Below, in pieces: positions 6,752-31,977 of a stretch of DNA of 64,000 nt (position 1 is the stretch's first letter; the number at the start of each line of letters is the position of its first letter). The notes beneath the pieces are model-generated. The model made no database searches and had not been told where the DNA came from. It saw nothing but the letters and a program-made list of their open reading frames with translations. The stretch is from an uncultured bacterium. Lineage in GTDB: Bacteria > Patescibacteriota > Dojkabacteria > SC72. The stretch covers positions 83,667 through 147,666 of the forward strand of contig CAIVJR010000005.1 in NCBI GenBank assembly GCA_903906305.1. The letters are read 5' to 3'. Position numbers and translations under genes: made by a program.

Positions 6752-6757
6752 TACTTC

Positions 6758-7252: not shown

Positions 7253-7269
7253 TATATCTATTTTACAAA

Positions 7270-8091
7270 TTATTCAACACGCACAAACACTTGCATTAGG
7301 TTGTCGTAATCCAAGATTGGGGAAACAAATGCAGTTTTGTATGTACTTGCGGGGTTACTTGAAAGTGCTACCACATATCCTAAGGCATAGAATCCTCCAA
7401 CTTTTGAGTCATTAATATATACCATGTCACCATCGACTACTTCGGAGTTCATGGCTATATTTTCAATCATTATACCCTCTGCAGAGCCACTAACTACCCC
7501 GCTACTTAGAATATTGGTATTAACGTTTCCATCCTGACCAACTTTAAGTACAACCACTTCCAAATGTGAATTCCCATCTGATGGTAACCTTACAGTGCTT
7601 CCCTTCAAGTCAACACTCGACACTATCCCAACAAAGATATTTCCGACAGTAACCACATCTCCCTGCTGTAATCCAGATTCACTTCCTTGATCAATGGCCA
7701 AAGTATCTACATTGTCATCTCGTAATGTATTGGCTAGTACATACTTTGCCTCCCTATTCCCCAACGCTATCTGTTTTTTTAATGCTTCATTCTCATTTTT
7801 AAGAATGACATAGTTGGAGTACTGGGCTTCCTTGTCGTATGAAGCTATTTTCAAGTCATTGAACTCTTTTCTAAAGTTTCCGAGATTAACGAATGTTTGG
7901 AAATATTCTTTAACCTTCGAACCTGCAATATTGGCTTGAAAAGATGTTGGTTCAAATACAAAAGAGAGTGCATTTCTCACACCTTTCATTCCACTTAACC
8001 CATCCAGAAGAAGAAGTGTAATCGCTAAAAGCAAAGAGAAATATACTACAATGTTGTTGTTTTGTCCTTTGGTAGTATTGTTTTTCATCAA
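7270..8091 (-). CDS. mreC: rod shape-determining protein MreC
   Basis: 273 aa, N-terminal TM, coiled coil, beta-rich C-terminal domains. Position after mreB. Confidence 0.75.
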   Translation of the reverse strand: MMKNNTTKGQNNNIVVYFSLLLAITLLLLDGLSGMKGVRNALSFVFEPTSFQANIAGSKVKEYFQTFVNLGNFRKEFNDLKIASYDKEAQYSNYVILKNENEALKKQIALGNREAKYVLANTLRDDNVDTLAIDQGSESGLQQGDVVTVGNIFVGIVSSVDLKGSTVRLPSDGNSHLEVVVLKVGQDGNVNTNILSSGVVSGSAEGIMIENIAMNSEVVDGDMVYINDSKVGGFYALGYVVALSSNPASTYKTAFVSPILDYDNLMQVFVRVE

Positions 8092-8098
8092 AGTATTA

Positions 8099-9154
8099 TT
8101 AAACTAACTCATTCCAAGATCTTTGGACTCTTTCAAGTAGTTCGATGTGGTCTAACATCAATGCGGTTCCTCTTGCTACTGCTGAAAGCGGATCATCTAC
8201 TATTTTTACTGGAAGATTTAACTCCTCTGCCCAGAATGTATCCAATCCTTTTATCAATGCTCCACCACCTGTTAAATGTAATCCTGAGGTTAACAAATCT
8301 TTTAGTAATTCTGGTGGAGTATCTTCAATTGCATCTTTAACTGCTTCGGTAATCTGATATATGGAGGTCATGATGGCTTCTCTTACCTCTACACTACTAA
8401 GCTCGACTGTCTTTGGAAGTCCCGTTAGAAGATCCCTACCCTGTACAGACATCTTAGTTTCCTTTTTTAGTGGCATTGCTGAACCTATGGCAATTTTTAC
8501 GTCTTCAGCGCTTCGCTCACCTATGAGGACATTGTATTTTTCTCTTACATAGTTAACGATATCTTGATCCATTTCATCTCCCGCAATTCTCAAGGTATTA
8601 TCTACAACAATATCTCCAAGTGAGAATACTGCAATGTCAGAAGTACCTCCTCCAACATCTACAATCATACTTCCAGAGGCATCTTCTACCGGTAACCCTG
8701 CTCCAATGGCTGCTGCCATTGATTCTTCAACTATGAATACTTCTCTCGCTCCAGCTGTTTTTACCGCATCGATAACGGCTTGTCTTTCTACTTCAGTTAC
8801 CGAAGATGGGACGCCAACGATTACTCTTGGTCTTGGAAGTTTAAATGAATTTCCAAAGTAGGAATGTGCTCGGTGTATGAAGTGATGGATCATGGCTTGG
8901 GTAGTATCAAAGTCTGAGATAACTCCATCTTTGAGTGGTCTCACTGCTGCAATGTTTGCAGGGGTTCTACCAATCATTTGTCTAGCTTCTTTACCCACAG
9001 CGAGTACTGTTTTAGTTCTTTTGTCTATTGCCACAACTGAAGGTTCGGAGACTACGATGCCGTGGTTACGCATATATACCAAGGTATTTGCAGTACCCAA
9101 GTCAATTCCCAAATCATATGTTAGTAGTTCCCAGATTGAATCAAAAATTTTCAT
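8099..9154 (-). CDS. mreB: actin-like rod shape protein MreB
   Basis: 351 aa with MreB phosphate-binding motifs (GIDLGTANTLVY, DVGGGTSDIAV). Confidence 0.9.
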   Translation of the reverse strand: MKIFDSIWELLTYDLGIDLGTANTLVYMRNHGIVVSEPSVVAIDKRTKTVLAVGKEARQMIGRTPANIAAVRPLKDGVISDFDTTQAMIHHFIHRAHSYFGNSFKLPRPRVIVGVPSSVTEVERQAVIDAVKTAGAREVFIVEESMAAAIGAGLPVEDASGSMIVDVGGGTSDIAVFSLGDIVVDNTLRIAGDEMDQDIVNYVREKYNVLIGERSAEDVKIAIGSAMPLKKETKMSVQGRDLLTGLPKTVELSSVEVREAIMTSIYQITEAVKDAIEDTPPELLKDLLTSGLHLTGGGALIKGLDTFWAEELNLPVKIVDDPLSAVARGTALMLDHIELLERVQRSWNELV

Positions 9155-16450: not shown

Positions 16451-16807
16451 ATGTGTTATAAAGTAGGACAAGAATTAGTACTAAAGCTAATCGTTGCAAG
16501 AGAGTATGGCAATTGTGCACACTACACACAAGTGGGTGGACACGGTCCAGATTTTCTGGTCCTCCCAGACAAAACGATGAAAGCCTGCAATTCAGATCCC
16601 AACCTCTTTTATCATGAAAGAGAAGAATATGTTTTAATCCATGGAATTAAAATTCCGTTGGAATCGGGATTTGAAAAAGTAACTGATAACTCTCGAAAGG
16701 TTGTTTCAAAAGGTGCAAAGTTCTCTATCACCTTGATTCTTTACAAACAAACAGCCCCAGAAAAAGAATCTGCTACTTTCAGAATTAAGTCGGTTAGTCT
16801 GGCTTAA
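16451..16807 (+). CDS. orphan hypothetical protein (118 aa) inserted between rplA and rplJ
   Basis: Intact ORF preceded by aaaggcggag RBS-like sequence. No recognisable motif. GC above neighbours. Confidence 0.4.
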   Translation: MCYKVGQELVLKLIVAREYGNCAHYTQVGGHGPDFLVLPDKTMKACNSDPNLFYHEREEYVLIHGIKIPLESGFEKVTDNSRKVVSKGAKFSITLILYKQTAPEKESATFRIKSVSLA

Positions 16808-17062: not shown

Positions 17063-17563
17063 TTGATGGACACAACAATTCTTGACGTTGAAAAATCCGT
17101 AGAACTAGAAACACAGCAAGAAATAGATTACTCTGGAAGTGACGGAGATCCGTTAATTCCATGGGAATGTCTATGTGAAGAACATCAAAGAAACAAAAAA
17201 TCCCACAGGTGGCACAAATCCTCCATGACCATAATCTCCGTAAGTGAGATTGATAAAAAGCATGTGAGAGTACATACTCCCAAGGGAGTATATATTTGCC
17301 GAATCACAAAATTCGACCAATATAAGGTTATAAGGGTTGTACGAACCAAAAAATCCTTTAAACCAAAAGATCCTCCCATTGAACTAGAAGATGAATTCCT
17401 CCCTGTCGTTATCGCCGAATGTGAGTTCTTGGAAGACAATTGGAAGGAGGTCCTTGCAGAGCAGAATCGGGAACAAAATCCCCAAGGAGAACAGCAAACA
17501 CTTAGAGTTATCTCTCCTGAAGCATTCAAAGCTGCAATGGACAAACGACAACCCAAAGCTTAA
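17063..17563 (+). CDS. orphan hypothetical protein (166 aa) inserted between rplA and rplJ
   Basis: Intact ORF with charged, Cys/His-containing N-terminal segment (WECLCEEHQRNKKSHRWH). No recognisable family. Confidence 0.4.
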   Translation: MMDTTILDVEKSVELETQQEIDYSGSDGDPLIPWECLCEEHQRNKKSHRWHKSSMTIISVSEIDKKHVRVHTPKGVYICRITKFDQYKVIRVVRTKKSFKPKDPPIELEDEFLPVVIAECEFLEDNWKEVLAEQNREQNPQGEQQTLRVISPEAFKAAMDKRQPKA

Positions 17564-18826: not shown

Positions 18827-18856
18827 GGAGCCATAGCAATATGGCTCTTTTTTTAT
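18827..18856 (+). terminator. rho-independent terminator after rplL
   Basis: gagccata-gcaa-tatggctc hairpin followed by TTTTTTT. Confidence 0.6.
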
Positions 18857-18867
18857 TCATAGACTAC

Positions 18868-19078
18868 CAAGGTCAGACCTAGGACAGTCCTCAATAATAT
18901 GTGATGCGCTTTTTTGTTGGATTGACGGACTTATCAGCCACTTTTTGTAGTTTGGTGCCATGCTAATTGGGCCTGTTTTTCTAATTATCTACACAGTACC
19001 CAATGTGCATTTGTCCTTACCTTCCATAGGTTTGTTGGGTTAATCGGTTGGGGAGGACTGACCTAGGTCAGTCCTTCG
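18868..19078. repeat. pair of related 20-nt palindromic motifs (centre CCTAGG) about 185 bp apart flanking a non-coding segment (REP/MITE-like)
   Basis: aggtcagacctaggacagtcct at ~18869-18890 and the perfect palindrome ggactgacctaggtcagtcc at ~19056-19075 followed by ttcgggg. Confidence 0.35.
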
Positions 19079-19174
19079 GGGTGTTAGATATTTATTAACT
19101 CCCATCGACAAATACACCCCAAATTAAGTATAATCTAACCAGAATCTGCCTTAATTTAATACACATATATTTCA

Positions 19175-19849
19175 ATGACCTATACACCTTTTACTCAATG
19201 GATGATTACGACTGGAGTACCACAACAAGTATTGGAATTGCTACTAGCTGTAATGATTGTAGCAACAATTGTAAGCATAGCTAGATATATAATTGGATCT
19301 AAAACATATGGAATATATGCACCAATAATATTGGCAATCGCATACTCATATACAGGTTTAAGATATGGATTAGCAATAACCTTGATAGTGATTTTGACTA
19401 CCCTACTCTCATACACCATACTACGAAGAGTACGTATGCATTACATAGCTAGAATAGCAGTAAATTACTGTCTGTTAGCTATAATGTTAGTAGTCTTCTT
19501 CATAGTCATAGGACAATTTGGTTTTGGTTTAGACAATATGGCAAATATCTCTGGACTTGCAGCAATATCAATTGCAGCACTTTCAGACTTCTTCATAAAA
19601 CAATATGTAAAGAAATCATTTAAATCTTCTGTCTTGATCCTCTTTAGCACTGTTTTCATTGCCACACTCGGATGGTTTGTCATAACCCGAGATGTCATAA
19701 CAACATATTTCTTAAACAACCTTTGGATTGTTCCAATCTTAATCATATTGAATATCCTCATTGGGCAGTTTACTGGCCTTAGAATCAAAGATCTCTTTAG
19801 ATTTAAATCAGTTATTCAGAATAAGGATAAAGATAATGTTCAGAAATAG
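19175..19849 (+). CDS. 7-TM membrane protein (7TM_transglut-like, no transglutaminase domain) that is the first gene of the ATP-grasp operon
   Basis: 224 aa with seven predicted hydrophobic helices. Its 3' end overlaps the start of the next gene by 14 nt. Confidence 0.6.
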   Translation: MTYTPFTQWMITTGVPQQVLELLLAVMIVATIVSIARYIIGSKTYGIYAPIILAIAYSYTGLRYGLAITLIVILTTLLSYTILRRVRMHYIARIAVNYCLLAIMLVVFFIVIGQFGFGLDNMANISGLAAISIAALSDFFIKQYVKKSFKSSVLILFSTVFIATLGWFVITRDVITTYFLNNLWIVPILIILNILIGQFTGLRIKDLFRFKSVIQNKDKDNVQK

Positions 19850-21293
19850 GATAAAAGATGTATTAGGACTAAACAGACGTAATCAAGAATACGTTCGTCC
19901 ATACAACCACCCAAAATCTAAAGCGTTAGCAGATAATAAGATTGCTACAAAAAAGCTTCTTGCAAAGGAAGGTATCAACACATCTGAGGTATACAAACTC
20001 ATTAAAAATCGTAAACAACTAGCCTTCTTAGATTGGGAATCATTACCAAAAAGTTTTGTAATCAAACCTAATCAAGGTACTGGTGGAAATGGAATTCTAG
20101 TAATCTATGGTAGAAAGAGGGGCGAATTAGCATGGATAAGGCCAGGCGGAGAAGTATTAAGTAAAAAAGATCTCTCCTTACACATTGAGAATATCCTCGA
20201 AGGAAGATTTTCAATGGGTGAAAGAAGCGATATCGCAATAATTGAAGAAAGAGTTAGAACTGATTCATTCCTAAAACAATACTCATACAAAGGTGTACCC
20301 GATATTAGAATCATATGTTTCAATCTCGTCCCCATTATGGCAATGATGCGAATACCTACCAAACGATCCAACGGTACTGCAAATCTACATTCTGGAGCTA
20401 TATGTACCGGTATAGACATAGCAACAGGCATAACCACCTACTCTATGCATATGAATAGCAAATCATTGTTGAGCGATACATATGAGATGATAGATAATAC
20501 TCAAGATTTGAAGATTAACAAAAAGCTTTCAGGTGTTCAGATACCTGATTGGGACAAGATCTTGGATATTGCAGTAAGATGCCAAAGAGCAAGTAAGCTT
20601 GGCTATACAGGTGTCGATATAGCATTAGACGCAGACAAAGGCCCTATCGTTTTTGAATTAAATGCTAGACCTGGCCTTGGAATCCAAGTCGCAAATCAAG
20701 CGGGTTTAAGATGGAGATTAGAAAAAGTAAAAGGATTGGAAGTGAAGAGTATTAAACACGGTATAAGGGTAGCGAAGAATCTGTTTGGTGGAGAAGTAGA
20801 AGACAGTATTGAAGCTATTAGTGGAAGAAAGGTTGTTAACATCAACGAGAAAATAACCCTGTATTACAAATCATACAAAGAAGGTAGCAAAAATGAGAAT
20901 AAAGACAGAGAGATTACTACCGCATTTGTAGATACAGGAGCTATAACCTCCCGTATCTCTCGAAGCTATGTATCCAGAATGGGATATTTCGAAACCATGA
21001 GACAGTTTGACTATCTAAAATGCCCTAAGAACTTCCTCGCTTTTAAGGATGCACAAGAATACATAGACGAATATAGTAAAAACATGACAGAGGATGCATA
21101 CATCATACGTTTAGCTAAAATCTTTGAGGATGGGCAAATAGTTGTCCGACCTGTTATCATTGTTAAAGTAAGAATATCAGGCGAAATACGTGATCTTGAA
21201 ATGATCGTAACTGAAGATAGTACACACTCTGTCACATTAGGAAGAAACGACCTCAGAGACTATTTAATTGATACAAGTAAAACATTTAAATAA
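19836..21293 (+). CDS. alpha-L-glutamate-ligase-related ATP-grasp protein (TIGR02291/RimK-related N-terminus) with a C-terminal DTGA retropepsin-like domain
   Basis: Start at MFRNRIKDVLGLNRRNQEYVRPYNHPKS...ADNKIATKKLLAKEGI, the characteristic G-x-N-R-R-N...Y-N N-terminus of the RimK-related family. ATP-grasp core (FVIKPNQGTGGNGILV ... DIALDADKGPIVFELNARPGL). C-terminal ~150 aa contain FVDTGAITS (20922-20948). Confidence 0.8.
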   Translation: MFRNRIKDVLGLNRRNQEYVRPYNHPKSKALADNKIATKKLLAKEGINTSEVYKLIKNRKQLAFLDWESLPKSFVIKPNQGTGGNGILVIYGRKRGELAWIRPGGEVLSKKDLSLHIENILEGRFSMGERSDIAIIEERVRTDSFLKQYSYKGVPDIRIICFNLVPIMAMMRIPTKRSNGTANLHSGAICTGIDIATGITTYSMHMNSKSLLSDTYEMIDNTQDLKINKKLSGVQIPDWDKILDIAVRCQRASKLGYTGVDIALDADKGPIVFELNARPGLGIQVANQAGLRWRLEKVKGLEVKSIKHGIRVAKNLFGGEVEDSIEAISGRKVVNINEKITLYYKSYKEGSKNENKDREITTAFVDTGAITSRISRSYVSRMGYFETMRQFDYLKCPKNFLAFKDAQEYIDEYSKNMTEDAYIIRLAKIFEDGQIVVRPVIIVKVRISGEIRDLEMIVTEDSTHSVTLGRNDLRDYLIDTSKTFK

Positions 21294-22282
21294 TGAAAAC
21301 ATACGAAGAATATCTAAAAGAAGCAGGAAATGTCCATTTAGCATACTATGTCGAAGCTGCTGACATCTTAGGAATCAAATATTCCATCGTTGTTAGAAGC
21401 CTAATTGCAAAGTTCGAAGTTGAAGACAAGCATTGGTTCATTATAAATACTGTTACACCCCTAACCTCCTCCCCAAGTGCTACCATTTCAAAACGAAAGA
21501 ACCTTACCAATATGGTATTAAGCTCATATGGTGTAGATGTCCCAAAGCAAGAGGGATTAACAAGCCCCATTGATGCTATAAAATTCTTTAATAAGTATAA
21601 AAACATAGTCATAAAGCCTGCTCAACAGCTTGGTGGAAAAGGTATTACCCTACTTCCAGAGACAGAAGACCAGGTTATATCTGCTTTCAACGAAGCATTC
21701 GAGAAAGATAGATCAAAAGGAGAAATTAAGGTATTGGGAGAAGAATTCATCAAAGGAGAAAACTATCGATTCTTAGTAGTTGGCGAAAACGTTGTTGGAA
21801 TAGTATGGAGAAAGGCCCCAATAGTTATCGGCAATAGCAAAAATACTATAAGAGAACTAATTGATACATCAAACAAAGAGCGTAGCCTCCTCGTTCTCAA
21901 ATCTATTCCCATAGATTCAGAAGTACAAACTAGATTAAAAAATGCTGACCTCACATTAGATTCAATTCCAGACGAAGGCCAAGTTATAACCCTTAGATAC
22001 AATTGTAATCTGACTACTGGTGGTACTACAGAAGAGTGTGCTTCCATTGTAGATCCATACTACAAGGAGCTCGCTGTAAAGGCCGTTAAGGCTCTTGATT
22101 TAGAATTCGGGGGTGTAGATATCATTGCAGAGGATATAACTAAACCAGGGAAGTGTGGAATTAATGAAATCAACTACAATCCTGGATTAAGATTACATTA
22201 CAAAGCTGACAAGGGTGAGAAGGTTAAGGTCGCTGTCCCTATTATGGAATATATTAGAGATAAGTATACAAATAAATTATAA
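21293..22282 (+). CDS. stand-alone cyanophycin-synthetase G-domain-like ATP-grasp ligase
   Basis: GENYRFLVVGENVVGIVWRKAPIVIGNSKNTIRELID ... NCNLTTGGTTEECASIVDP ... GVDIIAEDI matches CphA ATP-grasp motifs. TAATG start/stop overlap with the upstream gene. Confidence 0.75.
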   Translation: MKTYEEYLKEAGNVHLAYYVEAADILGIKYSIVVRSLIAKFEVEDKHWFIINTVTPLTSSPSATISKRKNLTNMVLSSYGVDVPKQEGLTSPIDAIKFFNKYKNIVIKPAQQLGGKGITLLPETEDQVISAFNEAFEKDRSKGEIKVLGEEFIKGENYRFLVVGENVVGIVWRKAPIVIGNSKNTIRELIDTSNKERSLLVLKSIPIDSEVQTRLKNADLTLDSIPDEGQVITLRYNCNLTTGGTTEECASIVDPYYKELAVKAVKALDLEFGGVDIIAEDITKPGKCGINEINYNPGLRLHYKADKGEKVKVAVPIMEYIRDKYTNKL

Positions 22283-22292
22283 GATAAACATT

Positions 22293-23984
22293 ATGAGTAA
22301 CGTGCAAGTATTACAAGGCCTAAATCTAGATTCAGAGATATCTGTCATAAAAATTAATGTACATAAGACCGATACTATCGTTAGATATCTTGAACTTCTT
22401 AAAAATTTTCACCCAATATTCATGCGTGAATACAAATTTGAAAATGACATCTTAAGCATTCACACAATGATAACCTCGTTGTGGAGAGAACTTGGAGAAA
22501 TAATAATCAAACTTTCAGAAGGAAAGATCGATTACGAAGAAGCAAGAAAACACACTCTTGAAGAAGTCCTTAAACAACGAGTAGCCTCTATGTCTACTAT
22601 TCCTCTAATCTTTTTTGCAAACAAAATGAAATATGAGGTAACACCAACGCTATTAGAAGACGAAAGGATAAAATACAATACAGGGCCCAATAGAATATAT
22701 ACTTTAGGCGTAGGTCGTAATTCCCAAATTATATATTCTATATCCTCTAGTAAAGATTCTAAAGAAGCAAAAGAAATTCAAAGAGATAAATATCTTACAA
22801 ACCTTATGATTCAGCGATTAGGTCTCCCTATTCCAAAATGGCAAGTCCTAGACAATATATCACAGATTGAAGAAGTCTGGAGTAGCTATGAAAAACCTGT
22901 CGTCATAAAACCAACAGGTCTTACAGGTGGGCATGGTGTTGTAGTTGGTATAGAAACGCTAGAGAAAGCAAAGGAGGCATTTAAATTTGCAAAAGAAGCA
23001 ACTCAGGATAGAATCAGAGAAGAATGGCAGCAAAAGATCATGATACAAGAACAAATCTCAGGTGAAGATTACAGGCTTCTCGTTATAAATGGCCATCTAG
23101 AAATCGCAACCAAGCGTATTCCAGCCTTCATCATAGGAGATGGCAAGCATACAATTGAAGAATTGATCGATATAACCAATACAGATCCTCGAAGAGATGT
23201 TACTAACCCTACTCATACATTAAAACCTATTAAGATTGATGATCCTCTAAAGTCATATATCAAAGATCAGAAATTAACCCTTACCTCTATTCCTAAGAAA
23301 GAGCAGAAAGTTAATGTGAGAAAGGTTGCAAGCATGAGCCAAGGCGGCATAACCGAAGATTTTACGGATAAGGTAAGCCCAGAAATTAAAGCAATTGTAG
23401 AGAGCATCGCATCATCGATTCATGCATTTACTCTAGGGGTCGATGTCATGTGTAAAGATCTTTCCAAACCATTAACAAAAGACAACGGTGCAATACTAGA
23501 AGTGAACACAATGCCTGAAGCATATCTTAATACCTATCCTGTCATTGGTGAATCCCGAGAATACGTATTCGACAAATATATAAAAGCTCTTTTAGAAGGC
23601 AATAACACAAAGCAGATAGTAATTGTAGGTAATAGCACAGAAGATGTACCTACTCTACTAAGAAAGAAATCGATCTTTGGATCATACCTCAAACAAGATG
23701 CCGTTATCGGAGAATACAAAGATGGAGAGATTAGAATTAATGGGTTGGATATAAATAAGGGCCTAGAGAAATGGAAAGCAATAGAAGGCCTTAAAGTAAA
23801 TGCATCTTTAGATGCAATGATCATACATCATAGAAATGTAGAAGAGGTTAGAGAAACAGGCTTAGGATTTAATAAAATTGACCTTTTAATGGTAGAATCT
23901 AAATATTTTGAAGATAGAGAATTTAAAAAAGCTATCCGAAGATACCAAATGAAAGGATTAATATCTAAAATAAAGAAATTCTAA
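22293..23984 (+). CDS. CphA-like ATP-grasp ligase with an N-terminal ~200-aa domain and a C-terminal ~120-aa extension, no Mur-ligase (M) domain
   Basis: Internal Met MSNVQVL at 22293. GEDYRLLVINGHLEIATKRIPAFIIGDGKHTIEELID ... MSQGGITEDFTDKV ... GVDVMCKDL is close to the CphA G-domain. Confidence 0.75.
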   Translation: MSNVQVLQGLNLDSEISVIKINVHKTDTIVRYLELLKNFHPIFMREYKFENDILSIHTMITSLWRELGEIIIKLSEGKIDYEEARKHTLEEVLKQRVASMSTIPLIFFANKMKYEVTPTLLEDERIKYNTGPNRIYTLGVGRNSQIIYSISSSKDSKEAKEIQRDKYLTNLMIQRLGLPIPKWQVLDNISQIEEVWSSYEKPVVIKPTGLTGGHGVVVGIETLEKAKEAFKFAKEATQDRIREEWQQKIMIQEQISGEDYRLLVINGHLEIATKRIPAFIIGDGKHTIEELIDITNTDPRRDVTNPTHTLKPIKIDDPLKSYIKDQKLTLTSIPKKEQKVNVRKVASMSQGGITEDFTDKVSPEIKAIVESIASSIHAFTLGVDVMCKDLSKPLTKDNGAILEVNTMPEAYLNTYPVIGESREYVFDKYIKALLEGNNTKQIVIVGNSTEDVPTLLRKKSIFGSYLKQDAVIGEYKDGEIRINGLDINKGLEKWKAIEGLKVNASLDAMIIHHRNVEEVRETGLGFNKIDLLMVESKYFEDREFKKAIRRYQMKGLISKIKKF

Positions 23985-23985
23985 T

Positions 23986-24933
23986 ATGAAATACCTCATC
24001 ATAGACAAAAGACAGCGTGTAGAAGTAGCTACAATGGGTGAAATACCTACAGGATCAGCAAGATTAGTAGAAGAATTAGATAAAAAAAATATTCCTCATG
24101 ATTTTGCATATAACGATGAAATAGAGTTCTTGTTTCATAATGGTTCCACGGTTATAAAAGTGGCAGGACATGACGTAACAGAGTACAGCAACATCATTCT
24201 TAGAGGTCATTCCTTAGGTGACGAACGTGAGTATCAATACAAGAGATTCATCATAGACTACGTTGATCAATATAATAGAGACAACCCAGAAAAAAAAGTG
24301 ATCATTCAGAATTCTAAGGCAATCAAGAATCTTCCATATTACAATAAGATAGCCTTTGCAATGCTATGTTCAAAAAATAACCTCCCCTACTTTAATACAT
24401 ATTTCCATACCAATGGGGAATATTTAAAAGATAGAGATATGTTAAAGGAATATCCATTGATTATCAAAGAATACTCGGGAATGAATAGAACTGAAATGAT
24501 TGAGGGTAAAGAGAAGATCAAGAAGAATGTGTTTAAATTAGAGAAAGATGAGGATTACAAGCAAGAAAATCTTGATGGACAAGATCTTTCCCATTTCTTC
24601 ATACAGGAATTTTCTGATGCTGGTGAAGATTACAGAATATTTGTTAAGTTAGGGAAAGTAATAGCCGGATGGAAAAGAAAGGCTGTTAATGGCTTTATGA
24701 CTGTAAGCAAGGGTGAGTACGAGATGTACAATACTCCTAACGAGGAGATAACTGAGATTGCTGAGAAGATGGCATCCGTATTAGAAGCTGACTTTATGGC
24801 CGTAGACTTTATGTATATGAATGGGAAGGCATGTATACAAGAGATAAGCTTCCATCCTGGATATAAGGCATATGAGACTAAGATTGAGGGAGAGCCAGTG
24901 AATATAGCTGAAGCTATAGTTACTGCTTTTTAA
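23986..24933 (+). CDS. RimK-like ATP-grasp ligase
   Basis: PLIIKEYSG ... FIQEFSDAGEDYRIFVKLGKVIAGWKRKA ... DFMAVDFMYMNGKACIQEISFHPG follows the RimK/glutathione-synthetase pattern. Start is 1 nt after the upstream stop. Confidence 0.7.
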   Translation: MKYLIIDKRQRVEVATMGEIPTGSARLVEELDKKNIPHDFAYNDEIEFLFHNGSTVIKVAGHDVTEYSNIILRGHSLGDEREYQYKRFIIDYVDQYNRDNPEKKVIIQNSKAIKNLPYYNKIAFAMLCSKNNLPYFNTYFHTNGEYLKDRDMLKEYPLIIKEYSGMNRTEMIEGKEKIKKNVFKLEKDEDYKQENLDGQDLSHFFIQEFSDAGEDYRIFVKLGKVIAGWKRKAVNGFMTVSKGEYEMYNTPNEEITEIAEKMASVLEADFMAVDFMYMNGKACIQEISFHPGYKAYETKIEGEPVNIAEAIVTAF

Positions 24934-27211
24934 GTCCTAGCTTCTCAAACATATTATTACTATCACCATTGTGATCATGTATTGCTTGGGCTTTGTATCT
25001 AGGTAGGACGAATATAAACTTACTTCCCTTACCTATTTCACTCTCTACTCGAATATCACCACCCATCTTACGTATAAGGTTGAAGGTTACGAATAATCCC
25101 AAACCAGTACCACCAGGTCTTACAATCTCTAGCTTCTCACCAACCTCTATGCTGGAGTTAATGTGATTCCCTGCCCTAAAGAATTTCTGTCCCAACTTAG
25201 GTAGCTCCTCTGCACTAATACCATAACCAGTATCAATAATGGATACTTCTACCCAGTTATCATCAAATCTATTCTCTATGGTCACACTACCTCTCTCTGT
25301 ATACTTAACAGCATTACTTATTAGGTTGTTCAATATCTCTACCACTCTAGCCCTATCTGCATATACATGAGGAGTATCTAATTGCATATTATTAATAATT
25401 GGAAGATCTTTTTCCATAGCATCTCTCTCATTCCCATGTATAGCCATATCTACCTCATTCTTAATATCTACCTCTTCAGGATCTATGACTATCTTATCCC
25501 CCTCTAATTTAGCACTACTCAGTAATGTATTAATTAGTTTTATTTCATTCTCTACAGCCATCTTAATCCTATCTACATACCTCTTGTATGCTTCAGGATC
25601 ACTCTGTATATCCCCTGTGAACTTCTCTAAGAGCTGTGCATTGAGTTTAACTATGGTAGCAGGTGTTCTTAACTCATGTCCCATTATATCAATCATATCG
25701 TTCTCTTTCTTACGAGCTTCCTGTAGTTCTTGAATCTTAACCTGAAGTTCTGCCGTCTGCGCATCAACCTTATATTGAAGGGTCTGATTGAAGGATTGAA
25801 GCTGCTTGTAAAGAAGGGCCTTATTAACAGAAATATGGAACTGGCTATATATACGATCCCAAAGATCTAATTCATCAATCTTGTACATCTGATTATTAGG
25901 TAGGTCTTGTATGAAAAGAACCCCTATTAGCTCACTCCCAGATACAATTGGATAGACTATTTGAATTTTAGATAACTCTAACAGATACAACAAATTAGAA
26001 TACTCTCGATATTCTAATGCATCTTTGTTACTCAAATACTCTAGCTCAGATCTGGAAAGAGATTTTAATCTTCCTACTGTAGTCGTTTCTTTATTCCAAT
26101 ACACTGGAATCTCTACAAAAATTTTATTAAGGTTTTCTATCTTCCAATCTCCATGAGTAAAACGATATGATTTTGTATTAACAGAGTCGTAAAGATATAT
26201 TTGAGCTTTGTTTGCAGAAGTATTTTGGCATATATAGCTCAAAGTCTTGTTACATATATCAGAAAGTTCTTGCTCAAAGTTAAGAAGTTTAATAAAGCCT
26301 TCACCCTTGTTTCTAAGGATCTGTTTTTCTGACAGGAAAATGTTGGCAACAGCATCTATAACTATTTTAAAAATAAGTGCTAACAAAAACGCAATTATGT
26401 AAAACAATATTTTAGGAATTTCCAACTGCTCAATTAGTGGGAAAACAACTACCAAAGAAACTACAAATACGATAGATGGAATAATGTAGAGAGATAAACT
26501 TCGCAAAATACCCCGTATCACAATCCCAAATCGTTGGAACCGTGTCTGTGTTAGACCATACGAAATAATAAGGTTTGCGATTGAGAATACCACAGGCCCA
26601 AACCAAATATATTCATAAACACCAAAGTATGGAGCTATGATATTAGCAGGGAAAGAACCCACTACTGTTAAAACATTTCCTATAATTAGATATTTTTGCT
26701 GTTCTTTCTCTATAAATGATAATGCTTTATACCCTCTTAAAGTTTTGTAAACATTAACTGCAAATACGATTGTTAACCATGCCATCCAGACCAGATATGC
26801 TTTACCAACTATTATATAGTTATTCCCTTCTAAGACAATTCTTTCTATAAAATTGTTTGTAAAGAATATTTCGTAAAGGAGAAAAAGAAATCCCCCTACT
26901 ACAAACAGAGCAAATAATAAATTGATCTTCTTTCTACGAAGATAATACGTAGAGAAAATATAATGGAACAGACCAATTGATATTGATGATAAATAGATAA
27001 TATCCGCCCAAAGTTTAGCGGTACTTAATGTATCTGTTAATAGAAAAGATACTGTTGAGAAAGCCCAAACCGGTCCAGCTATTATTCCCAAAATTCCTAA
27101 GAAAAAATATGCCTTGTTCTTTGGTTCTTTGAGAAAGGTAACTAAAGGCCCTATTAAGGAGGTAAACCCTAGTATTACAACAAACATATATAAAGTGTTA
27201 TCCCATATCAT
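24920..27211 (-). CDS. sensor histidine kinase with an N-terminal ~9-TM sensor domain
   Basis: 763 aa: nine hydrophobic helices, a cytoplasmic linker, H-box DIMGHELRTPATI and HATPase_c (GGTGLGLFVTFNLIRKMGGDIRVESEIGKGSKF). No response regulator adjacent. Confidence 0.8.
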   Translation of the reverse strand: MIWDNTLYMFVVILGFTSLIGPLVTFLKEPKNKAYFFLGILGIIAGPVWAFSTVSFLLTDTLSTAKLWADIIYLSSISIGLFHYIFSTYYLRRKKINLLFALFVVGGFLFLLYEIFFTNNFIERIVLEGNNYIIVGKAYLVWMAWLTIVFAVNVYKTLRGYKALSFIEKEQQKYLIIGNVLTVVGSFPANIIAPYFGVYEYIWFGPVVFSIANLIISYGLTQTRFQRFGIVIRGILRSLSLYIIPSIVFVVSLVVVFPLIEQLEIPKILFYIIAFLLALIFKIVIDAVANIFLSEKQILRNKGEGFIKLLNFEQELSDICNKTLSYICQNTSANKAQIYLYDSVNTKSYRFTHGDWKIENLNKIFVEIPVYWNKETTTVGRLKSLSRSELEYLSNKDALEYREYSNLLYLLELSKIQIVYPIVSGSELIGVLFIQDLPNNQMYKIDELDLWDRIYSQFHISVNKALLYKQLQSFNQTLQYKVDAQTAELQVKIQELQEARKKENDMIDIMGHELRTPATIVKLNAQLLEKFTGDIQSDPEAYKRYVDRIKMAVENEIKLINTLLSSAKLEGDKIVIDPEEVDIKNEVDMAIHGNERDAMEKDLPIINNMQLDTPHVYADRARVVEILNNLISNAVKYTERGSVTIENRFDDNWVEVSIIDTGYGISAEELPKLGQKFFRAGNHINSSIEVGEKLEIVRPGGTGLGLFVTFNLIRKMGGDIRVESEIGKGSKFIFVLPRYKAQAIHDHNGDSNNMFEKLGLKKQ

Positions 27212-28700
27212 TGTTCTTTGGCAGTTTTAATTCAAAAAATCTTGTTAAACTCATTTTCCTCTCTTCGTATGGTGGGTAATAAGAGCCTTCAATTCCTGTT
27301 AGCTCCAAGGTTTTCATTCCTGTCTTCCTTAGATCTTGAGCGATCTTTGGTGCTAGCTTCTTAGTTATTGCCCCAGCCTTCTTTGCCCCCATTAGATATC
27401 CCCAGAAACTGTTAAAACCTAATTTTTTTCTAACTTCAGCTAGAAGTTCATACTGCATAGTCGAAGATGGCGAAAAGAGTTGATTGATAAACGAAATCCC
27501 ATTTTTTTCTTTAATACTATATTCTGTATCTCCCAACTTAACATTTTTCTCAAAATTTTCTTTCTTTGTGAAGAAAATTGTCTTCAACATGCTCCCTGTA
27601 GAAAGATCAACTTGCATTCCAGGATCCAATGTACAATCTTGAAAAAGTCCTCCTGGTTTAACTCTTTTAACCATCTCGTCTACGACCTCAAAGTGAGTCT
27701 TCTCATCAAAATAGTTTATCCCGTTATCCGAAAATACAAAATGGTATGTATCATCACCCTTCTGCATAGATTCCAGAGCTGTTTCAAAATATATCGTTAC
27801 CCCCTCAAAATTCTTTTCTTTTTGCCCACTATCCAAAACAATTCGTGTAGGGATACCTCGCAAGGTTAACAACGTAGCTGCACAAATAACAGATTGAAGA
27901 GAGTTATCGGCAGAATGAAACTCAATTTTCTTTCCAGTCTCTTTAAGAGCCTCGTACATTAATGCTGTTGTGATGCCCGCACCGGTACATAATTCCTTAA
28001 CTTTGATTACTTCTTCTCCAGGAAAAGCCTCTTTCATATGATCTCTTGCCTTGGGAGCCATAATCCTTTCTAAACGATATGATTCATAGGCCAAAAGTTT
28101 GTTTAATATCCCTTCAATATTTGATTCCTCCCAATGCATAGATCTTTCCGTACTTTCATCTACGCCATTAGAAAAAAGTTTAGTTGTTTCTTTAAGTAAT
28201 TTTGGTATTAATTGATTAGACATTATTCGAATAGTTGCAGGAGCAAAAACAAATGGATTTTTTGGGTTCATGTATTCCCATTCAGCATAATTGGCATACT
28301 TTTTATGCACATCCATAAAAACAGGGACAAACTCATTTTGAGCATCTCGGACTTCAGCACTTATCTCTGTTGGAATCTTAATATACAAACCGTATTCGTC
28401 TGATCCTAACATCTTTAAATCAAGATCTTTTGGATCCTGAAGGTTAGAAATTTGGGCGTTTTCTTCATTTGTAGCTATTTGTGTCAAATAATTTGTTAAT
28501 GAAGGTAATTGCGAGATATTCTCTTCTGACTGTATTGGCTCATCTGCTGGGACTACAACTTCAGTAGTTACTGGAACGTTTGAAATTTCTTCCTGGGGTG
28601 GTTGCAAAGGAGAATTGGTTTCAACTTGCAAAGACATACCTTCACTCTCTAGTGGTGGTTTGTTATCCATTCTTATTTGGGCAATATTATGTATATACAT
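27198..28700 (-). CDS. class I SAM-dependent methyltransferase-fold protein with N- and C-terminal extensions
   Basis: 500 aa. VKELCTGAGITTAL (motif I-like G-x-G-x-G), VKPGGLF (post-I), FVFSDNGINY. Function unknown. Confidence 0.5.
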   Translation of the reverse strand: MYIHNIAQIRMDNKPPLESEGMSLQVETNSPLQPPQEEISNVPVTTEVVVPADEPIQSEENISQLPSLTNYLTQIATNEENAQISNLQDPKDLDLKMLGSDEYGLYIKIPTEISAEVRDAQNEFVPVFMDVHKKYANYAEWEYMNPKNPFVFAPATIRIMSNQLIPKLLKETTKLFSNGVDESTERSMHWEESNIEGILNKLLAYESYRLERIMAPKARDHMKEAFPGEEVIKVKELCTGAGITTALMYEALKETGKKIEFHSADNSLQSVICAATLLTLRGIPTRIVLDSGQKEKNFEGVTIYFETALESMQKGDDTYHFVFSDNGINYFDEKTHFEVVDEMVKRVKPGGLFQDCTLDPGMQVDLSTGSMLKTIFFTKKENFEKNVKLGDTEYSIKEKNGISFINQLFSPSSTMQYELLAEVRKKLGFNSFWGYLMGAKKAGAITKKLAPKIAQDLRKTGMKTLELTGIEGSYYPPYEERKMSLTRFFELKLPKNNDMG

Positions 28701-28723
28701 GATAGCACAAAAACTTGATCTGA

Positions 28724-29893
28724 CTATATCCCCGCCTTCTCAAATATTTCTAACCATTTATCTTTGTTTGGTACGTTATTTGGCATAGGTAATAACCCAT
28801 CCTCTACCCATTCACACTGTTTAAATGTAATCTTTCCCGCATACAATTGGTTATACAATCTAGGATTCTCTTCCAATTTCTTCTTAACTTTTCTAAATCC
28901 TCTAAAATATGCAATATCTTTACAATATATTCCTCGATCATGTGTATCCCCCAATCCTCTTTTAACACTATATGTAACATCAAATGCAGAATACTTAGGT
29001 AAAACAGCCAAAAGAACATTGTAAAGCTCTCTAAAGGAAAGATCTTCACCTAGATATACAGCCCATGTTAATGCTGCTTTGTTCTTCAACCATTTCTCTG
29101 TAAGAAGACCCATATTACTCTCATTCCATGTAGCCAAACCCTCCTCAACATCCAAATATTCAGGAAGATTAGCATTACTCAAAGCATTGAACCCACATTT
29201 CATACCATTTTCCGCTCTTAAAGCATGGGTCCCAACCTCGTGTACTAAAGTTTTTCGTAATTTGAAATTACTTCTTTCAATATTGGAATCCACCAAAATC
29301 TCTTTTCGTTTAATACCAAGCTTAATTCCATTTTTTGAAATATTTGCAGATTCATTTACAGTCCAACCATCTAACCCTAGCTCTCTGAAAGTAATGTCAA
29401 ATACTTTTTCAATATCATCATGATACAAAATCTTCCTCCTATTTATATCATCCTCCTTTACCACGTTGTAGTTATCTAACTTTCCTCTCAGTACCCTAGC
29501 CGCATTCCTAAATAGCTTGTCACTAGGTTTACCATACCTATGTACAGAAATATCAGTAACCTCTTCGTTATTACCAACCGCATACATAAGGTCGCTGGCT
29601 TCCTTTTTTGAATCAATTAACTGAAGGTAGAAATCAGAAATGCGAGGATCCACATCAACAATCTCTTTAACATTAGAAAGTTTCTTCAATATCTCTTTGT
29701 TATTATTCTTTACAATCCTGTATTCAAATACCGGATTGTATATCTCGCTATTAAAGAATTTCTTCTTCTCTGCTTCTAAGTTTGTAGGTGTAAATACTAA
29801 TGCAGTCGGTATCCTCAAATCACCAAGTAGCTTAGTAACTTCATCAAGCCTTAATGTCTTCTTTTTTCTAGCAAATATTTCCATGGGATACAT
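28724..29893 (-). CDS. DUF1704 / QEGLA-motif family protein (MATCAP-like HExxH metallopeptidase)
   Basis: 389 aa with HEVGTHALR (HExxH, 29223-29243) and a downstream EEGLA (29131-29151), the family-defining Q/EEGLA motif. Confidence 0.7.
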   Translation of the reverse strand: MYPMEIFARKKKTLRLDEVTKLLGDLRIPTALVFTPTNLEAEKKKFFNSEIYNPVFEYRIVKNNNKEILKKLSNVKEIVDVDPRISDFYLQLIDSKKEASDLMYAVGNNEEVTDISVHRYGKPSDKLFRNAARVLRGKLDNYNVVKEDDINRRKILYHDDIEKVFDITFRELGLDGWTVNESANISKNGIKLGIKRKEILVDSNIERSNFKLRKTLVHEVGTHALRAENGMKCGFNALSNANLPEYLDVEEGLATWNESNMGLLTEKWLKNKAALTWAVYLGEDLSFRELYNVLLAVLPKYSAFDVTYSVKRGLGDTHDRGIYCKDIAYFRGFRKVKKKLEENPRLYNQLYAGKITFKQCEWVEDGLLPMPNNVPNKDKWLEIFEKAGI

Positions 29894-29917: not shown

Positions 29918-30937
29918 CTATCTCCTAAAATCTCTGTTAAATGAGAACTTCCTTGAGCCCTCTTCTATGAGGTCTAAAGCAATACCAGTACCTTTTACTA
30001 CACAAAAAAGAGGATCATCTGCGACATGAGCAGGCACACCTGTAGCACGAGAGAAAAGTTTGTCTAAATTTCTTAGCAAGGATGTACCACCACTCATGAC
30101 CATACCACGATCCATAATGTCAGCAGATAGCTCTGGAGGAGTCTTTTCTAATACTGCTTGTATACTCTTAATTATACTCCTCAATGGCCACTCTACAGCT
30201 TTAGCAATATCATTGGAATTAACAATTACTGATTTAGGCATACCAGCTCCAACATCTCTTCCCCTTACTTCCATCTCCCTTGGATCTTTTACCTCTAATG
30301 CACTCCCTATCTTTATCTTTATCTTCTCAGCTGTCTGTTCACCAATTAAAAGGCCTTTCTTTTTACGCATGTATGAGATTATGGCCTCATTAATAGCGTC
30401 ACCTGCTACTCTTAGAGATTCATATTCTACTACTCCGTCAAGGGATATAACCGCGACTTCGGTGGTACCACCACCCATATTTATAATCATATTTCCAGAT
30501 GATGTATTTATTGGCATCTCCGCACCCAATGCAGCTAACAGAGGTTCTGGGAGTAATGTAACATTCCTTGCACCAACCGCATTTGCAGCTTTAAGTACAG
30601 CTCTTTCTTCTACAGAAGTAATACCTGCAGGTACACTAATTACAACATCAGGTTTGAAAAATCTTCCTTTTCCCAATGCTTTGTCAAAGAAGTATCTAAG
30701 TAAAGCTTCAGTTACTCGAGAATCAGCTATGACACCATTACGAAGAGGTCTTTTGGCAACGATATTATCTGGAGTCTTACCAATCATTTCTTTAGCTTCC
30801 ATACCTACAGCTATGACAGTGAAGTTGTTTACATCTATGGCCACAACGGTAGGTTCAGTTAAGACAATCCCTTCCCCTTGGACAAATACAACTGAGTTAG
30901 CTGTTCCTAGGTCTATACCTAATTTCTTTACAAACAT
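29918..30937 (-). CDS. second MreB/Mbl-family actin-like protein (paralog)
   Basis: 339 aa (GIDLGTANSVVFV ... NMGGGTTEVAVIS). Clearly distinct from the mreB at 8.1-9.2 kb. Confidence 0.85.
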   Translation of the reverse strand: MFVKKLGIDLGTANSVVFVQGEGIVLTEPTVVAIDVNNFTVIAVGMEAKEMIGKTPDNIVAKRPLRNGVIADSRVTEALLRYFFDKALGKGRFFKPDVVISVPAGITSVEERAVLKAANAVGARNVTLLPEPLLAALGAEMPINTSSGNMIINMGGGTTEVAVISLDGVVEYESLRVAGDAINEAIISYMRKKKGLLIGEQTAEKIKIKIGSALEVKDPREMEVRGRDVGAGMPKSVIVNSNDIAKAVEWPLRSIIKSIQAVLEKTPPELSADIMDRGMVMSGGTSLLRNLDKLFSRATGVPAHVADDPLFCVVKGTGIALDLIEEGSRKFSFNRDFRR

Positions 30938-30975: not shown

Positions 30976-31977
30976 TTAAAATTTCAACTTCATTGCCTCT
31001 TTCATCTGACCAGCAACACCAGTTGCTATACCGGCTACCTTAACACTTCCCTCTAATGCTTTCTTCATCAATTCTTCTTTCATACCTTCAGCTTCTCTTC
31101 TTCTCTCTCTAATTGGAGTTAAGAACTCATTCATAACTTCAAACAATCTTTCTTTAACTTCTACATCCTTTATAGTTCCATTCCTGTATCTCTCTTTCAT
31201 AGCCTCAACTTCTTCAATATCCTTGTCGAACAGATCTAGGTATGTAAATGCAACATTGCCTTCAATCTTACCAGGGTCTGTAGCATGAATTCTTGCAGGA
31301 TCGGTATATACCTTAAATACTTTCTTTCTTAATTCCTCTTCTGTATCAGCAAGATATATTCCATTGTTTAAACTCTTCCCCATCTTTGCATTGCCATCAA
31401 TCCCTGGTACATTAGCCTCAACACCAAACAGAGCCTGAGGTTGGTGTAATATATCTGTCTTGTATGTACTGTTAAACTTTCTTGCCAATACTCTAGTATC
31501 TTCAATCATTGGAGCCTGATCCTTACCCACTGGAACTAAGTCTGCATTAACACAAAGAATATCTGCAGCCTGATGTATTGGATATATGAAGAAGCCCAAA
31601 GGAGTAGAAACTTCCATCCCCTTTTGAGCCATTTCTGTTTTAATTGTTGGATTATGCTGAATCTGTTGTACGGTTGCAAAATTGGCAAGATATATGAATA
31701 TCTCATGGATAGCAGGAACTTCGCTCTGTATAAATATGGTAGCTTTGTTGAAATCAATCCCAGCAGCATAGTAGTCACAAAGGAGTTCTTCAATATTTTC
31801 TCTAACCTTACCCGGATTATCAAAGTTATCTGTCAATGCCTGCACATTCGCTATCTCAATATACTCCTCATATTCATCCTGTAATTTCGCCCTACTTTGT
31901 AAAGACCCAAAATAGTGGCCTATGTGCAACTGACCTGTAGGTCTGTCCCCCGTTAGAATTCTTTTCTTTACTTCCAT
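30976..31977 (-). CDS. trpS: tryptophanyl-tRNA synthetase
   Basis: 333 aa, HIGH motif (TGQLHIGHYFG) and KMGKS (AKMGKSLNNGIYL). Confidence 0.9.
   Translation of the reverse strand: MEVKKRILTGDRPTGQLHIGHYFGSLQSRAKLQDEYEEYIEIANVQALTDNFDNPGKVRENIEELLCDYYAAGIDFNKATIFIQSEVPAIHEIFIYLANFATVQQIQHNPTIKTEMAQKGMEVSTPLGFFIYPIHQAADILCVNADLVPVGKDQAPMIEDTRVLARKFNSTYKTDILHQPQALFGVEANVPGIDGNAKMGKSLNNGIYLADTEEELRKKVFKVYTDPARIHATDPGKIEGNVAFTYLDLFDKDIEEVEAMKERYRNGTIKDVEVKERLFEVMNEFLTPIRERRREAEGMKEELMKKALEGSVKVAGIATGVAGQMKEAMKLKF

Follow-up and report, generated by a model that had tools for sequence, protein, structure and literature searches.

The gene cluster described here, in which four ATP-grasp ligase genes follow a membrane-protein gene and face a convergent metallopeptidase gene, lies at positions 19,175 to 29,893 of a 64,000-nucleotide (nt) stretch of DNA from an uncultured bacterium of the Dojkabacteria (contig CAIVJR010000005.1, positions 83,667 to 147,666; hereafter the window), and the closest characterised relative of its core is the rloABC system of Pseudomonas aeruginosa. 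There, the RloA proteins are secreted retropepsins that are specific for poly-Glu and cut runs of at least eight Glu residues (Lormand et al. 2025, mBio, PMC12239564). RloB is an inactive transglutaminase fused to a seven-transmembrane-helix (7TM) protein, with the transglutaminase domain in the periplasm, and RloC is an ATP-grasp protein of the TIGR02291 type; the lethality of a triple protease mutant under hypo-osmotic conditions is suppressed when either rloB or rloC is deleted, and rlo mutants show cell-shape, β-lactam and hypo-osmotic phenotypes (PMC12239564). A canonical rloABC copy is also present on a plasmid of Legionella adelaidensis. Two further families bear on the comparison. In the RimK–RimB(–RimA) system, a cytoplasmic ATP-grasp alpha-L-glutamate ligase, RimK, tails ribosomal protein S6 with poly-Glu and a cytoplasmic retropepsin, RimB, trims the tail (PMC12239564). 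Cyanophycin synthetases of the CphA1 and CphA2 types (PDB 7LG5, 7WAC, 7TA5, 8FXH) extend chains at the C terminus through an acyl-phosphate, as do the RimK enzymes, and CphA2 consists of N and G domains with a truncated, inactive M domain and polymerises through the G domain only (PMC10273328).

The window system is assembled from the same core families as rloABC, namely a 7TM_transglut protein, an ATPgrasp_ST/TIGR02291 ligase and a PF05618 retropepsin, but it differs from rloABC in several respects. Its 7TM protein has no periplasmic inactive transglutaminase domain of the RloB kind, and its retropepsin lacks a signal peptide and is fused to the ligase rather than being a separate secreted RloA. 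The window system further comprises two CphA-type ligases, a ligase of the RimK clade and a metallopeptidase resembling MATCAP; its host belongs to the candidate phyla radiation (CPR) and not to the proteobacteria, and its scores miss the NCBIfam cut-offs for RloB and TIGR02291. In topology the window system is like RimK–RimB, which however has a single ligase and neither a membrane partner nor a MATCAP-like enzyme, both of which the window encodes. The core belongs to a known, partly characterised kind, while the arrangement itself is a new variant, of which we found no description in the literature. With moderate confidence we read the locus as an expanded, largely cytoplasmic Rlo/Rim-type system of ATP-grasp ligases and peptidases, which would build and trim an acidic chain at its C-terminal end.

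The operon occupies positions 19,175 to 24,933 of the forward strand and begins with the 7TM_transglut gene, followed by four non-identical ATP-grasp ligase genes (Lig1 to Lig4). Read directly from the sequence, the TAG stop codon of the 7TM gene (19,847–19,849) lies beyond the ATG of Lig1 at 19,836, giving a 14-nt overlap, and the end of Lig1 and the start of Lig2 have the pentanucleotide TAATG (21,291–21,295) in common. Lig2 stops at 22,280–22,282 and Lig3 starts with the ATG at 22,293, a 10-nt gap; Lig3 stops at 23,982–23,984 and the ATG of Lig4 follows at 23,986, after a single nucleotide. Public gene calls for identical proteins have identical starts (224, 485, 329 and 563 amino acids, aa, for the first four products), so that both this reading and the gene calls bear out the tightly coupled operon put forward in an earlier sequence-only reading of the locus (hereafter the original prediction). 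That reading had also assigned the first ligase to the RimK-related TIGR02291 family and the convergent gene to DUF1704, and profile searches place both proteins as it foresaw. It had missed the retropepsin domain of Lig1, which is a second peptidase in the system, and the relationship to rloABC.

The membrane protein (224 aa; 19,175–19,849, forward strand) is RloB-like and matches PF14402 7TM_transglut over aa 17–213 (60.8 bits against a cut-off of 25; 1.8e-16), with no transglutaminase or other extracellular domain. Its match to the RloB model NF052267 covers the C-terminal model positions 311–507 only and scores 36 bits against a cut-off of 900. The ATP-grasp part of Lig1 (aa 1–316; 19,836–20,783, forward strand) is RloC-like: it scores 218.5 bits against PF14397 ATPgrasp_ST (cut-off 31.4; 1.3e-64) and covers 288 of the 317 positions of TIGR02291 (2.3e-86), at 289.7 bits, below the equivalog cut-off of 314.2. 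By these profiles Lig1 is a relative of the RloC/TIGR02291 type rather than a strict equivalog. It carries the signature GLNRRNQEYVRPYN...ADNK, and K77, R158, R172, D261 and E274-x-N276 are invariant in 55 orthologues.

At 485 aa, Lig1 is about 170 aa longer than RloC-type ligases, and the extension (aa 317–485; 20,784–21,293, forward strand) consists of a linker and a retropepsin-like aspartic peptidase domain of about 165 aa that has no signal peptide. The extension contains the motifs VDTGA and LGRNDL (DTG at aa 366–368, GRNDL at 469–473). Its direct matches to aspartyl-protease families are sub-threshold, and the best PDB sequence matches of a profile built on the domain are the RloA-family entries 9G59 and 9G58. 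In fold, in the D-T/S-G motif and in the G-R-x-x-L motif, the domain agrees with retropepsins of the PF05618 RimB-like type (clan AA). The catalytic Asp-Thr pair is kept in all 55 unique orthologues and the following Gly in 50 of them.

Convergent with the ligase operon, the gene at 28,724–29,893 of the reverse strand encodes a MATCAP-like gluzincin metallopeptidase of 389 aa (PF08014/DUF1704, 93.8 bits against a cut-off of 27; 1.4e-26). Its score against the TIGR02421 QEGLA model (8.9e-33, 114 bits) lies below the equivalog cut-off of 338.65. MATCAP is a protein C-terminal carboxypeptidase, known as a tubulin detyrosinase, and the window protein aligns to human MATCAP (PDB 7Z5G, 5.5e-9) through the catalytic motifs, HEVGTH falling on HEIGTH and EEGLA on EEGLA. 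The EEGLA motif of the original prediction is thus present as described, whereas the HExxH that it named is in fact HExxxH. Across 74 orthologues, residues H218, E219, H223 and E250-E-G-L-A254 do not vary, and the metal-site residues are also kept across proteobacterial homologues; profile, HExxxH and (Q/E)EGLA together place the protein in the MATCAP family. It is closer to MATCAP domains that are fused to ligases (88–117 bits) than to proteobacterial QEGLA proteins (53–82 bits).

On the 5′ side of the peptidase gene, on the same strand and across a gap of 24 nt, lies mreB2, which encodes an MreB paralogue (29,918–30,937, reverse strand; PF06723, 1.6e-130) and is a conserved neighbour in every locus with flanking sequence. 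MreB2 is 74–98% conserved, with C-terminal residues that vary by lineage (..FRR, ..KSIT, ..TVSY). A second mreB (8099–9154, reverse strand) clusters with mreC and pbp2 (4748–9154). The combination of ligases and peptidase invites comparison with the tubulin tail cycle, in which ATP-grasp C-terminal ligases (TTL/TTLL) are likewise opposed by metallocarboxypeptidases (MATCAP, vasohibin, CCP), among them the MATCAP family with its HExxxH...EEGLA motifs. The likeness is one of logic only: the window ligases do not belong to the TTL family, and the MreB2 C terminus is not conserved.

The gene order of the system is constant. We mapped all window proteins on 21 loci from a genome scan of species representatives and on 80 loci from a metagenome scan; the latter, run with a broad MATCAP alignment, gave only Dojkabacteria-like loci (50–98% identity) and serves linkage counts only, and word-indexed homologue searches reached only relatives of at least 57% identity. 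The order rplJ-rplL-7TM-Lig1-Lig2-Lig3-Lig4, convergent with MATCAP-mreB2(-trpS), was found in every locus with enough flank (about 100 loci), so that the expected linkage of ligase operon and peptidase gene in related genomes holds, and it persists down to 45–55% identity (L110). The 7TM protein is 45–97% identical across all of these loci, and in degree of conservation the ligases roughly equal ribosomal protein L10. In one locus (L019, 14152–15674) Lig3 and Lig4 are separated by a 1.5-kb insertion, whose opposite strand carries two small hydrophobic open reading frames (ORFs) of 82 and 99 aa, the operon being otherwise intact.

In most loci the MATCAP-like gene abuts Lig4 directly. In the window the two are separated by a HisKA_7TM histidine kinase gene (24,920–27,211, reverse strand) and a gene for a 500-aa methyltransferase-like protein with a weak class I methyltransferase match (27,198–28,700, reverse strand), both identified with Pfam. 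This pair occurs only where the MATCAP-like protein is 84–98% identical to that of the window, and a few loci within this identity range lack it (for example L108). The two genes are a lineage-specific insertion and not part of the core. Of the span from 19,175 to 29,893, originally taken as one system, the operon and the peptidase gene accordingly remain, and the kinase and methyltransferase-like genes, absent at this place in most relatives, drop out. The 3′ end of the kinase gene overlaps that of Lig4 by 14 nt, and no response regulator to partner the kinase turned up in a single-sequence search of the window.

Because the whole neighbourhood, including rplJL, mreB2 and uvrA, is syntenic, linkage within the Dojkabacteria is by itself no proof of functional coupling, and this is the first of several points that weigh against our interpretation. 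What decides the matter is evidence from other lineages. An exhaustive HMMER search of 1.84 billion cluster representatives with Lig1 gave 1416 relatives, and domains were mapped in the best 150. Among these best 150 of 1416, 44 are fusions of an ATP-grasp domain to a C-terminal MATCAP domain (about 780–820 aa), at least 24 are fusions of ATP-grasp and retropepsin domains like Lig1 (36–50% identity), eight join a 7TM domain to an ATP-grasp domain, one of them as transglutaminase-7TM-ATP-grasp, and one combines ATPgrasp_ST, retropepsin and a second ATP-grasp domain. Other fusion partners of Lig1-type ATP-grasp domains are a receiver domain (P0476), YdjC and TPR repeats.

The same families meet again as neighbouring genes. 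In two lineages (L111 and L115/L116) a PKD-PKD-7TM_transglut gene is followed by a gene for an ATPgrasp_ST-MATCAP fusion, and in L114 a 7TM-only gene precedes a 916-aa triple fusion of ATPgrasp_ST, RimB-like and MATCAP domains. On two metagenomic contigs (L112, 8409–14103, and L113) co-directional genes encode a 7TM-only protein, a Lig1-like ATP-grasp-retropepsin protein, a 473-aa ATP-grasp protein unrelated to Lig2–4 and a class A penicillin-binding protein (PBP). It is because of these fusions and adjacencies that the 7TM protein, the Lig1-type ATP-grasp, the retropepsin and the MATCAP-like peptidase can be said to belong together, and the domain combinations imply that the four would work together. 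The fusions of ligase to MATCAP also led us to reject the idea that the MATCAP-like gene is a mere syntenic neighbour of the operon. Set against six loci (one ligase in Legionella rloABC, L111, L114 and L115/L116, two in L112/L113), the window system is, as originally supposed, more elaborate than a single-ligase system.

An independent parallel is found on plasmids of Pararhizobium, Sinorhizobium and Aminobacter (L023–L025), where operons encode an FGase, a MATCAP/QEGLA protein of about 630 aa and a GshB-like ATP-grasp ligase. These likewise pair a MATCAP-domain peptidase with an ATP-grasp ligase, but the ligase is of the PF02955 type, the additional enzyme is N-formylglutamate-amidohydrolase-like, and 7TM protein and retropepsin are missing. 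A plasmid of Vibrio sp. HDW18 (L022) encodes FGase and MATCAP domains in a single protein, with no ligase adjacent.

The PBP genes raise the question of whether such systems act on the cell envelope. On this account the ligases would extend a peptide on a peptidoglycan stem, a cross-bridge or a glycopolymer precursor, with the 7TM protein as scaffold or flippase and the MATCAP-like enzyme as a wall-precursor carboxypeptidase. The operons of L112/L113 run into the class A PBP gene, a PBP gene lies three genes from the system in L111, and mreB2 adjoins the window system; the Pfam label of PF14397 is ‘sugar-transfer associated’, in one relative the fusion partner is a YdjC-like carbohydrate deacetylase, and the shape, β-lactam and hypo-osmotic phenotypes of rlo mutants (PMC12239564) would fit. 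Against this, proximity to wall or shape genes is often expected by chance in genomes of about 700 genes, Mur-type and glycosyltransferase genes are missing from the operon, the protease family represented in the fusion cuts long poly-Glu, which is not a feature of wall peptides, and the peptidases are cytoplasmic. We consider direct synthesis of an envelope peptide doubtful.

There remain the other three ligases of the window. Lig2 (329 aa; 21,293–22,282, forward strand) is a stand-alone ATP-grasp protein resembling the G domain of cyanophycin synthetase (profile 3.7e-60; PDB 7LGN, 3.9e-30), without N or M domains. With the functional residues of TeCphA1 (PMC9427784) as reference, Lig2 keeps the equivalents of K220, K261, R309, R323, N394, G456 and R458, which include the full Asp-binding set, and has Thr at the position of E215; the catalytic and substrate-site residues checked are invariant in 58 orthologues.

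Lig3 (563 aa; 22,293–23,984, forward strand) matches the same G-domain profile at 3.4e-73 and is a three-domain protein of CphA2 architecture, with an N domain (about aa 1–133), an ATP-grasp G domain (about 134–432) and a vestigial, truncated and inactive M domain (about 433–563), in which GNSTEDVPT aligns to the CphA P-loop GTNGKTT and the P-loop is degenerate. The top Foldseek match of its AlphaFold2 model (pLDDT 89.2) is the CphA2 of Gloeothece citriformis (7TA5; E 2.4e-36, TM-scores of 0.70 by query and 0.68 by target, 591 columns), and its PDB sequence matches to CphA1 (2.6e-41) and CphA2 (8e-40) extend past the G domain into the start of M. Lig3 keeps K220, K261, R309 and R323, has N394 replaced by Ser, G456 by Glu and R458 by Tyr (CphA2 likewise has Tyr there), and shows an invariant PEAYLN, with the E215 and P-loop His (H267) positions varying among orthologues. 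Unlike CphA, it therefore has no conserved equivalents of E215, H267, N394, G456 and R458, its M-domain P-loop is dead, and it scores 247 bits against a cut-off of 877. Neither Lig2 nor Lig3 combines the residue set and the score of a cyanophycin synthetase (NCBIfam CphA scores of 204–247 bits against cut-offs of 850–877), and we rejected a bona fide cyanophycin synthetase on these grounds. Lig3 looks instead like an active ligase of polymerase architecture. The CphA-type enzymes are embedded in an Rlo-type system, so that the product would not be cyanophycin, and no cyanophycinase was noted among the annotated genes in the part of the window searched.

Lig4 (315 aa; 23,986–24,933, forward strand) is a divergent ATP-grasp protein of the RimK/MptN/LysX clade. 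It matches MptN over its full length (2.5e-13), the RimK family (1.5e-12) and PF08443 (6.4e-8), LysX and CofF also being matched (about 1e-13 to 1e-8), and its PDB matches to RimK and LysX are weak. K161, R217, R231, D274 and E286 are invariant. Against the RimK model TIGR00768, with its cut-off of 143.4 bits, Lig4 scores 47.5 and Lig1 48.1 bits, so that both are related to the RimK clade and neither is a member by cut-off; unlike in RimK–RimB, an S6-like acidic acceptor is not evident. Across all four ligases the ATP/Mg-binding and catalytic Arg residues are kept (55–69 orthologues). Housekeeping identities (purK, ddl, gshB, carB, purD) were considered and rejected, the matches being weak (about 1e-12 to 1e-3) or restricted to the ATP-binding half; every ligase stays below the housekeeping-family cut-offs, an outcome that favours the original prediction.

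The secondary matches nevertheless deserve attention, as the operon might serve small-molecule metabolism, making a di- to tetrapeptide metabolite or osmolyte (of the glutathione, N-acetylglutaminylglutamine amide (NAGGN) or γ-Glu type) or glutamylating a cofactor, with the peptidase a mere neighbour. After CphA, the next-best profiles of Lig2 and Lig3 are GshAB (2.9e-49 and 6.3e-46) and N-acetylglutaminylglutamine synthetase, and Lig4 matches MptN and CofF. However, the GshAB, NAGGN, MptN and CofF scores all fall far below the family cut-offs, and the full-length match of Lig3 is to CphA2, GshAB covering only the ATP-grasp part of the model (TM 0.45–0.50). Moreover, the fusions of Lig1-type domains to MATCAP and retropepsin make the peptidases integral, and an endopeptidase requires a chain and not a dipeptide. 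We regard a small-molecule product as improbable.

Taking the gene order, operon structure, domain identities, fusions and catalytic-residue conservation that we observe as the frame, the expanded Rlo/Rim-type system might operate as follows. Each ATP-grasp enzyme would activate the C-terminal carboxylate of the growing chain as an acyl-phosphate and add a unit to it, as is established for RimK and CphA, and the different active sites of the four ligases would imply that the units differ. Lig2 probably adds Asp or a similar acidic residue, since all the residues with which the G domain of cyanophycin synthetase binds Asp are present in it. Lig4, placed in the alpha-L-glutamate-ligase clade, and perhaps Lig1 probably add Glu. 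Lig3 probably adds a larger unit or elongates processively, because it joins the N + G + dead-M architecture of CphA2 to a remodelled site for the incoming substrate. Two dedicated hydrolases would set the length of the chain: the retropepsin, presumably dimerising through Lig1, would cut within long acidic stretches, and the MATCAP-like metallocarboxypeptidase would remove residues one by one from the same end that the ligases extend. The RloB-like 7TM protein may tether or regulate the machinery at the membrane. The product would most likely be an acidic oligo- or poly(amino acid) chain of Glu/Asp chemistry, whether free, borne on a primer or carried by a protein. By analogy with the phenotypes of rloABC, its physiological role probably lies in envelope or osmotic homeostasis.

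Whether a protein carries the chain is the point at which our interpretation parts from the original prediction, which had envisaged a ligase array and a carboxypeptidase that build and trim a short peptide tail on a protein or peptide. The ligases and the peptidase do appear as one functional unit, by gene order and by fusions; the short protein tail is not upheld. A short defined tail could be placed on S6, L7/L12 or the MreB paralogue, to be erased by the MATCAP-like enzyme and the retropepsin. RimK-family ligases and RimB provide the precedent on S6 (PMC12239564), and the window peptidase aligns through its catalytic motifs to a carboxypeptidase that acts on protein C termini. The MATCAP-like gene always lies directly 3′ of mreB2 and co-directional with it, the ligase operon always follows rplJ-rplL, and both window peptidases lack signal peptides and would be cytoplasmic like RimK and RimB, unlike canonical Rlo. 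The candidate acceptors themselves speak against such a tail. MreB2 C termini are not conserved, those of L7/L12 read VEL followed by a variable residue, an acidic acceptor tail is lacking in both, and a conserved acidic C terminus was sought on MreB2, L7/L12, Lig4 and the MATCAP-like protein and found on none. The operon contains no conserved small ORF, and specifically, in the interval from rplL to the 7TM gene, where a precursor peptide might be encoded, no ORF is conserved across loci. Lig3, with its N domain, is homologous to CphA2 and of the polymerase type, the family of the fused protease needs at least eight Glu, a membrane 7TM partner has no obvious role in the modification of a ribosomal protein, and region-wide synteny leaves the adjacency to rplL and mreB2 with little weight. 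We therefore think a defined protein tail unlikely. A longer chain or poly(amino acid), which need not be attached to a protein, is at least as likely, and we give a slight preference to a free or primer-borne acidic chain over the tailing of a specific protein, on account of the polymerase architecture of Lig3, the long substrates of the protease, and the absence of a precursor ORF and of acceptor C termini.

A more far-reaching form of the tail idea, which we regard as a long shot, is that a cellular protein, with MreB2 as the most provocative candidate, bears a ‘tail code’ of C-terminal amino acids that the ligases write and the MATCAP-like enzyme erases. If true, the tubulin tyrosination/glutamylation cycle would have a counterpart, and possibly its evolutionary source, in prokaryotes, and the ATP-grasp-MATCAP fusions would represent an ancestral pair of ligase and eraser.

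Besides the synteny of the region, several observations temper the reading of the locus as an acidic-chain system of Rlo/Rim type. No reaction has been demonstrated for RloC-type ligases and no product for any member of the system family. The canonical Rlo protease is secreted and its 7TM partner has a periplasmic domain, whereas the window parts other than the 7TM protein are cytoplasmic, and the two systems may handle a different product or work in a different compartment. About 10% of Lig1 orthologues have DTS, DTT, DTA or DTV in place of DTG. Lig3 has lost CphA substrate-site residues (the N394, G456 and R458 equivalents) and does not conserve the P-loop His, and it might serve as a scaffold instead of polymerising; in Lig4, ExS stands where the canonical Mg site has ExN (S288 in 67 of 69 orthologues). 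Finally, inspection of four distant systems (six loci) revealed none of Lig2–4, which are tied to Lig1 by operon structure within one class only; at present sampling they appear to be a Dojkabacteria addition.

Some features of the surrounding sequence may be noted. Upstream of the operon, a hairpin terminator follows rplL (18,828–18,847), and a scan against the consensus only finds a promoter-like site on the forward strand, TCGACA-18-TATAAT (19,105–19,134; 11 of 12 positions), about 40 nt 5′ of the 7TM gene. The spacer between rplL and the 7TM gene measures 377 nt in the window, compared with 117–200 nt in many relatives, and contains a near-palindromic element of 24 nt (AGGACTGACCTAGGTCAGTCCT-like) twice, at 18,869–18,892 and 19,053–19,076. 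The copies lie 160 nt apart and might represent paired operators, a small RNA with secondary structure or a miniature mobile element. Further upstream, two forward-strand ORFs without Pfam match (16,451–16,807 and 17,063–17,563) break the rplK-rplA/rplJ-rplL cluster, and the first of them is present in just one related locus among those mapped. Downstream of mreB2, the position of the tryptophanyl-tRNA synthetase gene (30,976–31,977, reverse strand) is occupied by a close orthologue (63–97%) or by a version of about 40% identity, or the gene is absent (loci L005, L006, L017, L018, L038–L044 and others), a pattern that suggests gene displacement within the Dojkabacteria. Towards the far end of the window, two reverse-strand genes encode giant proteins of 2624 and 2250 aa (48,164–56,038 and 57,138–63,890) with Laminin_G_3 and Gly_rich_2 domains, presumably surface proteins, and between them a Fic/DOC-domain gene lies on the opposite strand (56,022–57,131, forward strand).

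All Dojkabacteria genomes sampled contain the operon, which takes up about 7 kb of less than a megabase, and this constant presence, its L10-like conservation and its share of the genome suggest an important cellular function in these CPR bacteria. With its catalytic parts in the cytoplasm, a ligase and a protease fused, and three extra ligases, the Dojkabacteria version would offer a self-contained, soluble set of enzymes for identification of the product in vitro. Peptidases of the MATCAP family, hitherto known as tubulin detyrosinases, are repeatedly fused to or paired with bacterial ATP-grasp peptide ligases, and this bacterial pairing of ligase and MATCAP provides a concrete context for the origin of the tubulin-code eraser.

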